IMG/VR virus record: IMGVR_UViG_2713896737_000023
Source of the DNA: a virus
Taxonomy: Duplodnaviria; Heunggongvirae; Uroviricota; Caudoviricetes
Direction: 5' to 3' (one strand)
DNA length: 4,816 bases
Shown in pieces: positions 424-4,539 of the stretch. Position numbers and translations under genes: made by a program. The notes beneath the pieces were generated by a model that was not told where the DNA came from, did not search any database, and was given only the letters and a program-made list of their open reading frames with translations. Each line of letters begins with the position of its first letter. Position 1 is the first letter of the stretch.

Positions 424-618
424 ATGTCAACGAAGAACAGAACCCGCAGAACAACAACCCGCAACATCCGCTTTCCTAACCAAATGATTGAACAAATTAA
501 CATCGCTCTTGATCAAAAAGGGTCCGGAAATTTCTCAGCCTGGGTCATTGAAGCCTGCCGTCGGAGGCTAACGTCAGAAAAGAGAGCATATACATCAATT
601 AAAAGTGATGAAGAATGA
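424..618 (+). CDS. ylcI: YlcI-like small ribbon-helix-helix-type protein (64 aa, DUF3950-like), cos-proximal accessory gene
   Basis: 64-aa ORF with a basic N-terminal tail (STKNRTRRTTTR) followed by a beta-strand/helix/helix pattern (RNIRFP, NQMIEQINIAL, NFSAWVIEACRRRL) typical of RHH DNA-binding proteins. Length and position match ylcI of the K-12 DLP12 prophage, whose gene order (rzpD, borD, ybcV, ybcW, ylcI, nohD) this window mirrors. The symbol is assigned from synteny and length, not from a sequence alignment. Confidence 0.6.
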   Translation: MSTKNRTRRTTTRNIRFPNQMIEQINIALDQKGSGNFSAWVIEACRRRLTSEKRAYTSIKSDEE

Positions 619-782
619 ACATCCCGCGTTCTTCCCTCCGAACAGGACGATATTGTAAATTCACTTAATTACGAGGGCATTGCAGTAATTGAGTTGCAGT
701 TTTACCACTTTCCTGACAGTGACAGACTGCGTGTTGGCTCTGTCACAGGTTAAGTAGTTTGAATGATTAGCAGTTATGGTGA

Positions 783-989
783 TCAGTCAACCACCAGGGA
801 ATAATCCTTCATATTATTATCGTGCTTCACCAACGCTGCCTCAATTGCCCTGAATGCTTCCAGAGACACCTTATGTTCTATACATGCAATTACAACATCA
901 GGGTAACTCATAGAAATGGTGCTATTAAGCATATTTTTTACACGAATCAGATCCACGGAGGGATCATCAGCAGATTGTTCTTTATTCAT
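783..989 (-). CDS. ybcW: YbcW-like small acidic protein (68 aa), function unknown
   Basis: 68-aa ORF on the minus strand with a GGAG Shine-Dalgarno about 7 nt upstream of the ATG at 989. Length and position (divergent from the ybcV-like gene, between it and ylcI-like) match DLP12 ybcW and a lambda right-end ORF. Synteny-based assignment. Confidence 0.6.
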
Positions 990-1274
990 TTTGTCGCTCC
1001 ATGCGCTTGCTCTTCATCTAGCGGTTAAAATATTACTTCAAATCTTTCTGTATGAAGATTTGAGCACGTTGGCCTTACATACATCTGTCGGTTGTATTTC
1101 CCTCCAGAATGCCAGCAGGACCGCACTTTGTTACGCAACCAATACTATTAATTGAAAACATTCCTAATATTTGACATAAATCATCAACAAAACACAAAGA
1201 GGTCAGACCAGATTGAAACGATAAAAACGATAATGCAAACTACGCGCCCTCGTATCACATGGAAGGTTTTACCA

Positions 1275-1685
1275 ATGGCTCAGGTTGCCATTTTTAAAGA
1301 AATATTCGATCAAGTGCGAAAAGATTTAAACTGTGAATTGTTTTATTCTGAACTAAAACGTCACAATGTCTCACATTATATTTACTATCTAGCCACAGAT
1401 AATATTCACATTGTGTTAGAAAACGATAACACTGTGTTAATAAAAGGACTTAAAAAGGTTGTGAATGTTAAATTCTCAAGAAATACGCATCTTATAGAAA
1501 CGTCCTATGATAGGTTGAAATCAAGAGAAATCACATTTCAGCAATACAGGGAAAATCTTGCTAAAGCAGGAGTTTTCCGATGGGTTACAAATATCCACGA
1601 ACATAAAAGATATTACTATGCCTTTGATAATTCATTACTATTTACTGAGAGCATTCAGAACACTACACAAATCTTTCCACGCTAA
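1275..1685 (+). CDS. ybcV: YbcV/YdfO-like DUF1398 family protein (136 aa); lambda right-end accessory ORF homolog
   Basis: ORF in the same frame as the 177-aa track ORF. I place the start at ATG 1275 because GGAAGG lies 8 nt upstream, giving 136 aa, the length of K-12 YbcV. Alternative upstream ATG at 1233; the track start at 1152 is TTG and probably not used. It sits directly upstream of bor in the same orientation, as in DLP12 and lambda. Confidence 0.65.
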
Positions 1686-2302: not shown

Positions 2303-2763
2303 TATCTGCACTGCTCATTAATATACTTCTGGGTTCCTTCCAGTTGTTTTTGCATAGTGATCAGCCTCTCTCTGAGGGTGAAATAATCCCGTTCAGCGGT
2401 GTCTGCCAGTCGGGGGGAGGCTGCATTATCCACGCCGGAGGCGGTGGTGGCTTCACGCACTGACTGACAGACTGCTTTGATGTGCAACCGACGACGACCA
2501 GCGGCAACATCATCATGCAGAGCATCATTTTCAGCTTTCGCATCAGCTAACTCCTTCGTGTATTTTGCATCGAGCGCAGCAACATCACGCTGACGCATCT
2601 GCATGTCAGTAATTGCCACGTTCGCCAGCTTCAGTTCTCTGGCATTTTTGTCGCGCTGGGCTTTGTAGGTAATGGCGTTATCACGGTAATGATTAACAGC
2701 CCATGACAGGCAGACGATGATGCAGATGAGCAGAGCGGAGATAATCGCGGTTATTCTGCTCAT
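2302..2763 (-). CDS. Rz: Rz i-spanin (inner-membrane spanin subunit)
   Basis: 153-aa product [48 protein letters not shown]..., near-identical to lambda Rz as recalled. It has an N-terminal TMD and a coiled-coil periplasmic domain, and its start overlaps the R stop (ATGA). Confidence 0.92.
2361..2543 (-). CDS. Rz1: Rz1 o-spanin (outer-membrane lipoprotein), embedded in the +1 frame of Rz
   Basis: 60-aa product [24 protein letters not shown]... with a lipobox (VVGC) and a proline-rich mature region (PPPPPAW...PPPDW), near-identical to lambda Rz1 as recalled. Fully nested inside Rz. Confidence 0.85.
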
Positions 2764-3236
2764 ACCTCACTCTCTCTGACCGTTCCGCCAGCTTCTTTGA
2801 ATTTTGCAATCAGGCTGTCAGCCTTATGCTCGAACTGACCATAACCAGCGCCCGGCAGTGAAGCCCAGATATTACTGCAACGGTCGATTGCCTGACGGAT
2901 ATCACCGCGATCAATCATAGGTAAAGCACCACGCTCTTTAATCTGCTGCAATGCCACTGCGTCCTGGCTTTTGGGGGAGAAGTCTTTCAAACCAAGCTGT
3001 TTACGGTAAGCATCCCACCAGCGTGAAAGAAGCTGATAACGTCCGGCGGCTGTTGATTTGAGTTTGGGGTGTAGCGTGACAAGTTTGCGAGGGTGATCGG
3101 AGTAATCAGTAAACAGTTCGCCGCCAACAATAACATCATAACCGTGGTTACGTGTCGGTTGTCGCCCGTTATCCGTTCCTTCTGACCACGCCAACATATC
3201 GAGGAAGGCTTTACGCTGAGGATTAAGATTTTGCAT
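2760..3236 (-). CDS. R: Endolysin R (lambda-type lytic transglycosylase)
   Basis: 158-aa product ...[20 protein letters not shown]...[25 protein letters not shown]... matches lambda R over almost its whole length as recalled, including the catalytic Glu19 in the AWSEGTD context. The N-terminal ~6 residues differ from lambda. The start overlaps the holin 3' end by 14 nt. Confidence 0.92.
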
Positions 3237-3744: not shown

Positions 3745-3780
3745 CAGAAACAGAAAAGCCCAAGGCTTTAAACCTCGGGC
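3745..3780 (-). terminator. Intrinsic terminator (proximal, minus strand; candidate tR'): stem GCCCGAGG/CCUUGGGC, loop UUUAAAG, then UUUUCUGUUUCUG
   Basis: Seen directly on the minus strand: 8-bp stem with two G-U pairs (plus 3773-3780 / 3758-3765) followed by a U-rich tract, about 55-85 nt downstream of the candidate late promoter. Confidence 0.6.
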
Positions 3781-3837
3781 TTGAATTTGGATTACTGCCA
3801 GTGCGTACAACATTGGCAAAATATCAGATTTACATAA

Positions 3838-3866
3838 AATATATGATTTTTAATCCAGTTTTGCAA
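3838..3866 (-). promoter_or_regulatory. Candidate sigma70 late promoter (pR'-like): -35 TTGCAA (3866-3861), 17-bp spacer, -10 TATATT (3843-3838)
   Basis: Minus strand reads ...gaTATTGCAAaactggattaaaaatcaTATATTttatgtaaatctgatatttt.... The -35 overlaps the Q-like stop codon, as in lambdoid pR' arrangements. A -10-like GATATT/TATTTT in the initial transcribed region could act as a sigma-dependent pause element. Motif-based only. Confidence 0.4.
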
Positions 3867-4539
3867 TATCTTGCTGTGAAAATGTGGTCTTTTGTTTTGA
3901 ACGTGTTTTCGTTAAAAGCAATAAAGCTTGGCTATCAAGCTGTAGAAAAATGTGTTTCATTGCAACCCAGCGTTCAGTAAATGTCTCAGACCAGTTTTTT
4001 GATGTCACTCCCACCAGTGATGCCAGCTCCTGGTATTCATAGGTCTTACGCCCTGCCAGCTCGTTCTTCACATCCTGTGCCGCCAGCCAGATCAACTTCT
4101 TCAAACGTTCCAGTGTCTTACCTGCAATTTTCCTGGTACCCAACAGAGTCTTAAACTCGCTCCATGCCCACTGCGTTATGGTGACCTGATGTTCCCAGCG
4201 AACACTTTCGCTGTAACTCCACAGCAACCACGCTTTCTGATGTTCTTCGAGAGACAGAACCGCGCGGCGCCATGACGAGGTTGAGAACTCAACCTGGCTG
4301 ACCAGTGCAATGGATGAACCTTTTGCGTACGACTGCTTACCGGAAATCGGCGGATTATCCAGCGTAATCATCCTGCCAGTTACCTCATCCAGAATGCGCG
4401 GCTTCTTTCGTTTGTATGTACCAGTATCAAATTGTGCATGCTCCAGCCAGGCTTCAAGCTGTCCTTTCGTTGCTCCGCTCAAATCAGCGGTAGCCACAAT
4501 GAGTTGCTCGCGGACATACTGTAAATATTGGGTATTCAT
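3850..4539 (-). CDS. Putative late-gene antiterminator Q (229 aa, non-lambda type, no cysteines)
   Basis: 229-aa ORF with an AGGAG Shine-Dalgarno 7 nt upstream. It is directly upstream of a promoter, tandem terminators and the lysis cassette, which is the canonical Q position. It has no similarity to lambda Q as recalled and lacks any Cys, so it is not a zinc-finger Q-lambda type. Assignment is by synteny. Confidence 0.55.
   Translation of the reverse strand: MNTQYLQYVREQLIVATADLSGATKGQLEAWLEHAQFDTGTYKRKKPRILDEVTGRMITLDNPPISGKQSYAKGSSIALVSQVEFSTSSWRRAVLSLEEHQKAWLLWSYSESVRWEHQVTITQWAWSEFKTLLGTRKIAGKTLERLKKLIWLAAQDVKNELAGRKTYEYQELASLVGVTSKNWSETFTERWVAMKHIFLQLDSQALLLLTKTRSKQKTTFSQQDIAKLD

Follow-up and report, generated by a model that had tools for sequence, protein, structure and literature searches.

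The three small genes between bor and cos of an O157-type prophage are known lambda right-end genes and probably independent cargo

Three small genes lie between the bor lipoprotein gene and cos in the prophage DNA analysed here (4,816 nucleotides in full, hereafter the window), and they raise the question of whether they form one gene set, perhaps with a function in defence, or are separate pieces of cargo. The preliminary description had recognised them as ylcI-like, ybcW-like and ybcV-like genes in an accessory slot reaching from the lysis genes to cos, and their coordinates, strands and identities all hold. The ylcI-like gene occupies positions 424-618 on the plus strand (64 aa); the ybcW-like gene, which is lambda p79, occupies positions 783-989 on the minus strand (68 aa, pI 4.9); and the ybcV-like gene, lambda p78, occupies positions 1275-1685 on the plus strand (136 aa, DUF1398, pI 9.2). 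The cos region (213-252) comprises gaggtcgccgccc, the lambda cosN cohesive end, followed by lambda right-end sequence with cosQ (ggaaaggaccc). Position 225, where database records beginning at cos start to match, supports this placement. The Nu1 start codon, read from the letters of the window, is at 33-35 on the minus strand, and bor, an accessory neighbour transcribed in the same direction as ylcI and ybcV, is at 1977-2270 on the plus strand (PF06291, 1e-30). With the late genes (Q, holin, R and Rz/Rz1) encoded on the minus strand, it was also right that ylcI, ybcV and bor are read against the late strand.

This interval is 97.8% identical in DNA sequence to lambda 46739-48502, and in O157 genomes with a 100% match to the window the genes carry the PGAP names ylcI, ybcW and ybcV. 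The ylcI-like gene corresponds to lambda 48109-48303 (complement), where NC_001416 has no CDS, an omission in the lambda reference annotation; its product differs from the lambda copy at one residue. YbcV differs from p78 at two residues, and the YbcW of the window, lambda p79 and K-12 YbcW are identical at 68/68 residues. The genes ylcI, ybcW/p79 and ybcV/p78 are already catalogued at the lambda right end. It is probable that they are three separate non-essential accessory genes (morons), each working alone, in a variable cargo slot between the lysis cassette and cos/terminase. The interval consists of lambda's own genes, namely an unannotated ylcI-like ORF, p79 and p78, probably carried as independent cargo.

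All three ORFs exceed chance expectation and show purifying selection, as judged by Nei-Gojobori dN/dS against diverged alleles, with values of 0.03-0.20 for ylcI, 0.19-0.37 (about 0.2-0.4) for ybcV and 0.25-0.85 for ybcW. It is highly improbable, in our estimate, that at least one of them is not functional and is conserved only because the region is recent and near-clonal in E. coli prophages, although such a reading would accommodate the dN/dS of up to 0.85 for ybcW in some comparisons and the observation that, in the alleles sampled, coding DNA is no better conserved than intergenic DNA. Much of the database 'diversity' is, moreover, sequencing noise from lambda control DNA: the YlcI and YbcW homologue collections and the YbcV search (1.8 billion representatives) were overrun by noisy sequences derived from lambda, on contigs about 3.5 kb long, and a distant-DUF1398 profile was the only route to a usable diverse set for YbcV. 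Against this reading stand 16 synonymous versus 2 non-synonymous changes in ylcI of allele L051, the excess of synonymous over non-synonymous changes per site in ybcV, and a YbcV family that reaches proteins 25-45% identical with conserved residues and includes one solved structure. Similarly, variation in YbcW is concentrated in residues 1-19, while residues 20-68 are almost invariant (p = 2.6e-4), and the p79 protein has a demonstrated biological effect (bioRxiv 10.64898/2026.09.04.749371). At the RNA level, an Rfam search gave no match within 424-1685, and folding of 335-430, 640-782 and 1020-1080 on both strands gave z-scores of only -2.2 to +0.2.

Whether the three genes belong together was addressed by surveys anchored on YlcI (71 dereplicated viral loci), on YbcV (58 dereplicated metagenome loci) and on Nu1. 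The YlcI-anchored loci carried both ybcW and ybcV in 37/71 cases, ybcW only in 7/71 and neither in 27/71; around YbcV, ylcI and ybcW were both present in 19/58 loci, ylcI/ynfO only in 21/58, ybcW only in 14/58 and neither in 4/58. Nearly every gene combination was found across the three surveys. None of the three genes was present in prophages with an 83-88% identical Nu1 from Citrobacter, Enterobacter, Kluyvera and Klebsiella, which carried unrelated cargo instead, and a NohA-anchored genome scan of other genera detected neither these genes nor a comparable small RHH gene at the same position. The slot between Rz and cos/terminase thus contains different cargo in different prophages, which is the presence and absence pattern of morons, and the literature shows p78 and p79 to be dispensable. 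The earlier notion of a gene set does not survive these counts; the three genes come and go independently among related prophages and therefore are not one new system.

A more specific grouping would make the three genes, or the pair ylcI/ynfO and ybcV/ydfO, one module, possibly a type II toxin-antitoxin or abortive infection system with the RHH protein as antitoxin-repressor and the DUF1398 protein as effector. In Qin, ydfO indeed follows ynfO by 57 bp on the same strand, the classic antitoxin-toxin layout; in the window, too, ylcI and ybcV are read in the same direction, and YlcI has a weak HicB-like antitoxin match (phrog_497, E = 0.016). However, ylcI is absent from 18/58 YbcV-anchored loci and ybcV from 34/71 YlcI-anchored loci, so that adjacency and co-inheritance are not obligate, and the distant DUF1398 genes (Shimwellia, Pseudocitrobacter) stand singly in the chromosome, without an RHH gene beside them. 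A fold search with YbcV found no resemblance to any known toxin, disruption of ybcV is tolerated, and natural loci exist that have ybcV and lack ylcI. The co-occurrence counts and the stand-alone distant homologues led us to reject the two-gene module, which they largely refute and which we consider very unlikely indeed; the antitoxin-like role first proposed for YlcI is contradicted by the absence of an obligate partner. PADLOC-DB 2.0 gave no meaningful model match to any of the three proteins, and its marginal values were 0.017 for YbcW (Mem_04) and 9e-4 for YbcV (REase_II, 16.7 bits over a partial region), with none for YlcI. The suggestion that the genes are candidates for anti-phage functions finds no defence model behind it, and the analysis gives no indication of a new type of system. 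These genes, present in the most studied phage, in E. coli K-12 and in the lambda control DNA of nanopore sequencing, are to be studied singly, not as an operon or a defence system.

The assignment of the ylcI product is secure at the family level. It matches PF13132 DUF3950 (5.4e-20, 71.4 bits, cutoff 25), phrog_949 (4e-35) and NF041551 YlcI_YnfO_N (36.6 bits, cutoff 30), its 64 aa fall within the family size of about 60-80 aa, and the Nu1 start lies 389 bp away on the other strand, all of which places it in the YlcI/YnfO family. From its sequence and predicted structure, YlcI is most likely a small basic DNA-binding protein, with a ribbon-helix-helix (RHH) dimer as its likeliest form. It has a pI of 10.5 and a basic N-terminal arm with six K/R in residues 1-18, and it is under very strong purifying selection. 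The AF2 monomer (pLDDT 69) consists of coil (1-18) and two helices (19-32 and 34-63), which together with G33 fit the RHH topology, and all 13 of 13 Foldseek matches in the PDB are RHH-fold proteins. The monomer is without a beta-strand and its helix B is longer than usual; the missing strand is expected only if the strand pairs in a dimer, and does not itself argue for one. By sequence, no RHH family in Pfam was matched at E <= 1, the PDB gave no match and CopG could not be aligned; hhalign paired RNIRFP of YlcI with FNLRWP of Arc (P = 0.039, probability 1.3%). An N-terminal arm followed by an RHH core (RNIRFP, helix 19-32, G33 and a helix from residue 34 onward) is the probable architecture.

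Directly upstream of ylcI, positions 338-423 form a constrained non-coding stretch, a candidate promoter, operator or 5' UTR. In allele L051, 5/86 of its positions differ, as compared to 16/43 synonymous sites in ylcI (Fisher p = 1.4e-5). An imperfect inverted repeat at 322-334 and 342-354 (ATCAATTATGACG N7 CGTATTAATTGAT) overlaps this stretch with its right arm and is a candidate for repeated operator half-sites, and its left arm is not conserved in L051. A plus-strand promoter scan upstream of ylcI gave no sigma-70 consensus match, and RNA folding of 335-430 showed nothing unusual. As a working model, ylcI would be transcribed from the prophage strand, against late transcription, and YlcI would be a repressor that controls its own gene through the constrained 86 bp 5' of the start codon. 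A weaker possibility is that YlcI, as an RHH regulator encoded by the prophage, has host genes among its targets.

The position of ylcI also allows for YlcI being a cos-associated DNA-binding factor that aids lambda-type packaging or cos cleavage and is kept beside Nu1 and cos for that reason. Nu1 adjoins ylcI in 61/65 YlcI-anchored loci, which could mean a functional tie to cos and not mere linkage, and both the almost invariant first 49 residues of YlcI and the constraint on the 86 bp between ylcI and cos would suit such a factor. Nevertheless, we judge it very unlikely. The gene is read against late transcription, and it is missing both from the prophages of other genera with Nu1 83-88% identical and from an Escherichia prophage (L088) whose Nu1 is 99% identical. 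Cosmid work has shown that minimal cos fragments are packaged without the ylcI region in cis. Half of the lambda-DLP12 recombination junctions adjoin cos (PMC3945230), and therefore tight linkage to cos alone could retain a gene 200 bp away. An obligate link of YlcI to Nu1 and cos was rejected on the NohA-anchored scan, in which the three genes were absent from other genera.

The spacer between ybcW and ybcV (990-1274) measures 285 bp, as had been claimed. The TTGACA hexamer to which attention had been drawn is present at 1171-1176 on the plus strand but has no weight as a promoter: two copies were observed in the window against 4.0 expected by chance, a promoter scan at the site found no matching -10, and the sequence 5' of ybcV that includes it is not retained in the Qin-type or L207-type contexts of ybcV. 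More generally, a consensus promoter scan for ylcI and ybcV on the relevant strands, this spacer included, gave no match, and terminator-like sites in the interval are weak. A perfect 9-bp inverted repeat at 1038-1063 (TCAAATCTT N8 AAGATTTGA), located some 50-75 bp 5' of the ybcW start codon, is mostly conserved among the close alleles sampled and folds only mildly more stably than shuffled sequences (z = -1.4 and -2.2). The documented cis element of the spacer is a PdhR box at 1197-1213 on the minus strand (ATCTGGTCTGACCTCTT), 62 bp upstream of the ybcV ATG and identical to the K-12 ybcV-ybcW site, an exact match with 0 expected by chance. The box marks the left boundary of the ybcV/ydfO cassette in every context where this cassette occurs, and in Qin the last codons of ynfO (QVRPD) are read across it.

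Although PdhR generally represses its targets, the K-12 data point to activation at this box. SELEX located a PdhR site between ybcV and ybcW in K-12, and both mRNAs fell about 10-fold when pdhR was mutated (PMC7660256). At least 50% of K-12 RNA-seq samples also show convergent transcripts of ybcW and ylcI that overlap (PMC12288877), and overexpression of T4 MotB raised DLP12 ybcV and ybcW more than 1000-fold, which its authors link to altered H-NS repression (PMC7827196). Expression outside lytic growth, as proposed for ylcI and ybcV, is plausible, given that ybcV and ybcW mRNAs are detectable from the 98%-identical DLP12 copy (PMC7660256) and that ybcW and ylcI transcripts occur as a pair in K-12 (PMC12288877). 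Because ybcW and ybcV travel with their shared spacer even beside a different terminase (L189), they may share regulation.

YbcV matches PF07166 DUF1398 over the whole profile (2e-46, 157.4 bits, cutoff 22; positions 1-119 of 119) and the solved YdfO structure, PDB 2HH8, by sequence (1.6e-70), which gives it the YdfO fold. The structure search that had been proposed for the DUF1398 protein thus led to a solved homologue, and the fold, a tandem duplication of a two-helix, three-strand module, is an orphan. The family has no conserved catalytic motif; invariant residues at the surface are Y35, W103, R112 and Y114. The gene has a GGAAGG ribosome-binding site 8 nt upstream, and its product is predicted to be soluble. 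A 177-aa reading from a TTG at 1152, as in the lambda p78 annotation with its 41-codon N-terminal extension, finds no support: the DUF1398 match begins only at residue 8 of the shorter, 136-aa product, K-12 YbcV is annotated with 136 aa, the solved YdfO chain aligns from query residue 1, and Qin-type and L207-type loci have unrelated sequence 5' of the conserved ATG. Neither this TTG start nor the labels 'head protein' and 'putative envelope protein' attached to lambda p78 are supported. Lambda p78 scores as non-essential (PMC10695390), and lambda phages that took up ybcV::Kan from DLP12 stay active and can lysogenise (PMC3945230). The PdhR box, the 62-bp leader and the ORF of ybcV/p78 together make up one self-contained cassette, and YbcV, a basic alpha/beta protein with the duplicated YdfO fold that is predicted to be soluble, may act as a binding or modulator protein made from the prophage under host control, PdhR-dependent and possibly silenced by H-NS.

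The ybcW gene lies on the same strand as late transcription, with a GGAG ribosome-binding site 8 nt upstream, and its product matches phrog_657 (7.5e-48) and no Pfam family. The preliminary description held that all three functions were unknown; this still applies to ylcI and ybcV and fails for ybcW, since lambda p79 activates the Vulcan NADase defence, co-expression of Vulcan and p79 being toxic (bioRxiv 10.64898/2026.09.04.749371, a preprint). In the same study, p79 was deleted in 7/7 Vulcan escape phages, which are viable, and the other phages that Vulcan blocks are without p79. A CRISPRi block in p79 stops plaques only via polarity on the late transcript, p79 being otherwise non-essential (PMC10695390). 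The Vulcan phenotype applies directly to the present prophage because the protein is identical. We infer that ybcW/p79 is expressed from the pR' late transcript during lytic growth and, from the DLP12 data, that it would also be expressed in the prophage state in a PdhR-dependent manner. A tentative and on balance doubtful extension is that p79/YbcW is a late-expressed counter-defence or host-takeover effector whose activity, or whose complex with a host target, is sensed by Vulcan in a guard-like manner. If so, the variation in residues 1-19 beside an invariant core would record an arms race between evasion of the sensor and function. An anti-defence role of p79, like a role of YlcI in regulating host genes, would be of moderate interest to phage biologists if true.

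Among known systems, the lambda right end (lambdap78, lambdap79 and the ylcI-like ORF; lambda 47042-48303) agrees with the window in gene content, gene order and strands; the window differs in belonging to an O157-type prophage, in its Q/nin region and in the IS3-family element at its right edge. The lambda RefSeq annotation is unlike that of the window in omitting ylcI and in giving p78 the extended N-terminus. In K-12, DLP12 has the same arrangement, ylcI (b4589), ybcW (b0559) and ybcV (b0558) between borD and nohD, with YbcW and the PdhR box identical, YlcI one residue off and YbcV two; this prophage is defective and has no late transcription, so that its expression data (PdhR, MotB/H-NS, convergent transcripts) describe the prophage state only. 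In contrast, Qin has no ybcW, its ynfO and ydfO stand in tandem, YnfO has a different and longer C-terminal tail than YlcI, and GnsB, YnfN and CspI take the place of bor. YlcI is similar in size to Arc, Mnt, CopG, ParD, the N-terminal domain of NikR and the C-terminal domain of HicB, and it appears to share with RHH repressors and antitoxins a basic N-terminal arm, a strand-like RNIRFP, a helix, a glycine turn and a second helix. Finally, p79 resembles the capsid, portal or terminase proteins that Avs, CapRel or Lit sense in being a phage protein that sets off an abortive-infection defence: its presence alone triggers NAD+ depletion, and phages escape by losing it (bioRxiv 10.64898/2026.09.04.749371). 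Unlike those triggers, which are conserved structural or essential proteins, p79 is a small, dispensable accessory protein.

The three small genes at 424-1685 are already known genes of lambda and of E. coli K-12. Identity is 97.8% between positions 225-1990 of the window and lambda 46739-48502, and 98.6% between the full segment 1-1990 and other lambda-like phages; O157-type E. coli prophages, whose genes are called ylcI, ybcW and ybcV by PGAP, match the whole window at 100%. The same gene arrangement is present in the K-12 prophage DLP12. YbcW, lambda p79 and K-12 YbcW are identical proteins, YlcI carries one change relative to the lambda copy (D30E), and YbcV differs from lambda p78 at two residues. 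The lambda RefSeq record annotates p79, lists p78 as a 177-aa 'head protein' and contains no CDS for the ylcI-like ORF. YlcI gave strong family matches to DUF3950 and NF041551, and YbcV to DUF1398 and PDB 2HH8 (1.6e-70); the sole match of YbcW was a PHROG family of unknown function, beyond which no family was detected. Codon-level comparison with diverged alleles shows purifying selection on all three genes, with dN/dS values of 0.03-0.20 for ylcI (16 synonymous versus 2 non-synonymous changes in the most diverged allele), 0.19-0.37 for ybcV and 0.25-0.85 for ybcW.

The apparent spread of these three families is inflated by probable contamination. On ~3.5 kb ENA contigs there are thousands of 'homologues' of all three proteins with slightly garbled sequences, and lambda-identical Nu1 is also found in assemblies under such labels as Kitasatospora, Paenibacillus, Pseudomonas, Oceanobacillus and a plant. 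These misplaced or garbled copies likely derive from lambda control or spike-in DNA; the nanopore control amplicon spans the lambda right end.

The window corresponds to a lambda-like prophage's right end in the orientation opposite to late transcription. Q (3850-4539), the holin gene, the endolysin gene (2760-3236) and Rz/Rz1 (2302-2763) are on the minus strand, and are followed leftward by bor (1977-2270, +), the ybcV-like gene (1275-1685, +), the ybcW-like gene (783-989, -), which is read in the late-transcription sense, and the ylcI-like gene (424-618, +). From lambda's known ends, we take the cohesive-end region to lie at ~213-252, left of ylcI, and the first Nu1 codons to occupy the minus strand at the left end of the window. 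The coordinates, strands and 285-bp ybcW-ybcV spacer of the preliminary description were all correct, and its observation is confirmed; its interpretation was partly supported. A sub-threshold Rfam match to the Hfq-binding sRNA isrJ (30.4 bits versus a gathering score of 37, E = 0.009) lies at 3755-3834 (-), between the holin gene and Q in the late-promoter leader region, and the last part of the window (4744-4816, +) is the beginning of an IS3-family transposase orfA. No Rfam family was found within 424-1685, and RNA folding of the three spacers revealed nothing unusual.

Although the genes had been described as a set, loci sampled from three independent anchors contained nearly every combination of them. 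Among 71 dereplicated YlcI-anchored viral loci, 37 had both ybcW and ybcV, 7 had ybcW only, and 27 had neither, with bor directly after ylcI. The 58 dereplicated YbcV-anchored metagenome loci were divided among ylcI plus ybcW (19), ylcI/ynfO only (21), ybcW only (14) and neither (4). In the Qin prophage, ydfO starts 57 bp after ynfO and ybcW is missing; one locus (L189) has the ybcW-ybcV pair beside a different small-terminase gene, without ylcI, and two others (L207 and L209) have ybcV alone. None of the three genes was found in Citrobacter, Enterobacter, Kluyvera and Klebsiella prophages with Nu1 83-88% identical, where the same slot holds unrelated cargo. In Shimwellia and Pseudocitrobacter, distant DUF1398 genes (25-40% identical) stand singly in the chromosome; they have long spacers upstream, and none has an RHH (ribbon-helix-helix) gene beside it. 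These mixed combinations indicate that the interval is a cargo slot with three independently mobile genes, and that ylcI, ybcW and ybcV behave as three separate morons. The slot is also an IS target: other O157 strains carry an IS1203 copy between bor and ybcV (7874-9087 of locus L004).

A reading of the three genes as a toxin-antitoxin or defence module is not tenable, since they assort independently; PADLOC defence models gave only marginal matches. Nu1 adjoins ylcI in 61 of 65 loci. A packaging role for YlcI is possible, and linkage is the simpler explanation, because cos is a recombination hotspot (PMC3945230) and ylcI is 200 bp from it.

YlcI is probably an RHH protein, and the 'clear' RHH signature originally claimed was too strong a wording: the sequence fits, and every formal test fell below significance. 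Its RNIRFP motif aligns with FNLRWP of Arc, so that N14 and R16 fall at the positions of Arc N11 and R13, which are base-contacting residues in the Arc-operator structure; the motif leads into two helices separated by a glycine. With a pI of 10.5 and six Lys/Arg within residues 1-18, the protein is basic; residues 1-49 are almost invariant among alleles and common to YnfO, and the YlcI and YnfO types differ solely in the C-terminal tail. No Pfam RHH family or PDB sequence matched YlcI, and neither the HicB-like phrog_497 (E = 0.016) nor Arc by hhalign (P = 0.039) was counted as significant. The AF2 monomer had a pLDDT of 69 and no strand; its Foldseek matches were all RHH-fold proteins, yet with E = 3.7-8.5. 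Relative to the most diverged allele, the 86 bp before the ylcI ATG (338-423) are changed at 5 of 86 positions versus 16 of 43 synonymous sites (p = 1.4e-5), making this segment the best candidate promoter or operator for ylcI. The alleles differ by indels at 255-337, and an imperfect inverted repeat at 322-354, whose left arm is not conserved, overlaps the segment.

In the ybcW-ybcV spacer, the TTGACA noted earlier is present at 1171-1176 but uninformative: the window has two copies versus four expected, this one has no -10 partner, and its surroundings are missing from other ybcV contexts. Unlike TTGACA, the PdhR box is an informative element. The sequence ATCTGGTCTGACCTCTT at 1197-1213 is an exact copy of the K-12 ybcV-ybcW PdhR site, and both mRNAs were ~10-fold lower in a pdhR mutant of K-12 (PMC7660256). 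In all contexts, the ybcV/ydfO cassette is bounded on the left by this box; the ynfO reading frame of Qin ends across it (codons QVRPD, stop; ~2975-2995 of L006), and in L207 and L209 it is reduced to the half-site CTGACCAGAT. Overexpression of T4 MotB raised DLP12 ybcV and ybcW >1000-fold, which its authors link to altered H-NS repression (PMC7827196), and ybcW and ylcI are reported to be transcribed convergently, with overlapping transcripts (PMC12288877). An ionic liquid transiently induces ydfO, and YdfO overexpression is cited as affecting resistance to oxidative stress. Upstream of ybcW, 1038-1063 contains a perfect 9-bp inverted repeat, TCAAATCTT N8 AAGATTTGA, which as RNA is only slightly more stable than shuffled sequence (z = -2.2 for the plus and -1.4 for the minus strand). 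Some curated lambda records list a 40-aa ORF at 1075-1197 (-) as a 'hypothetical protein'; it overlaps TTGACA and the PdhR box.

In the lambda RefSeq record, the p78 start codon is a TTG that lies 41 codons 5' of the conserved ATG (window 1152-1274, lambda 47453-47575). This N-terminal extension is unsupported and the 136-aa start preferred, because DUF1398 begins at residue 8 of the shorter form, K-12 YbcV is annotated as 136 aa, the alignment with the solved YdfO chain begins at residue 1 of the query, and Qin-type and other contexts have unrelated sequence 5' of the ATG. The names 'putative envelope protein' (older records) and 'head protein' (RefSeq) are likewise unsupported, since YbcV, a dispensable protein (PMC10695390, PMC3945230) encoded on the anti-late strand, has no hydrophobic segment or signal peptide. 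Its invariant residues (Y35, T41, N43, A96, G99, V100, W103, R112 and Y114) are mostly aromatic, basic or glycine and form no catalytic-looking motif.

In lambda CRISPRi, p79 scored as 'essential' solely via polarity on the late transcript continuing to Nu1 through J (PMC10695390), which confirms that late transcription crosses this gene in the sense direction. YbcW is acidic (pI 4.9), and its variable positions are concentrated in residues 1-19 (11/19 versus 6/49 elsewhere, p = 2.6e-4), notable variation for a protein sensed by a defence system. Vulcan is a NIR-domain NADase system with which p79 is toxic when co-expressed; p79 was deleted in 7/7 lambda-vir escapees, with recombination with Qin as the likely route (bioRxiv 10.64898/2026.09.04.749371, September 2026). 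Such a route fits the lambda-Qin homology that flanks ybcW, through ylcI/ynfO on one side and from the PdhR box into ybcV/ydfO on the other. Of the three morons, p79 is the one for which an interaction with a defence system has recently been defined.
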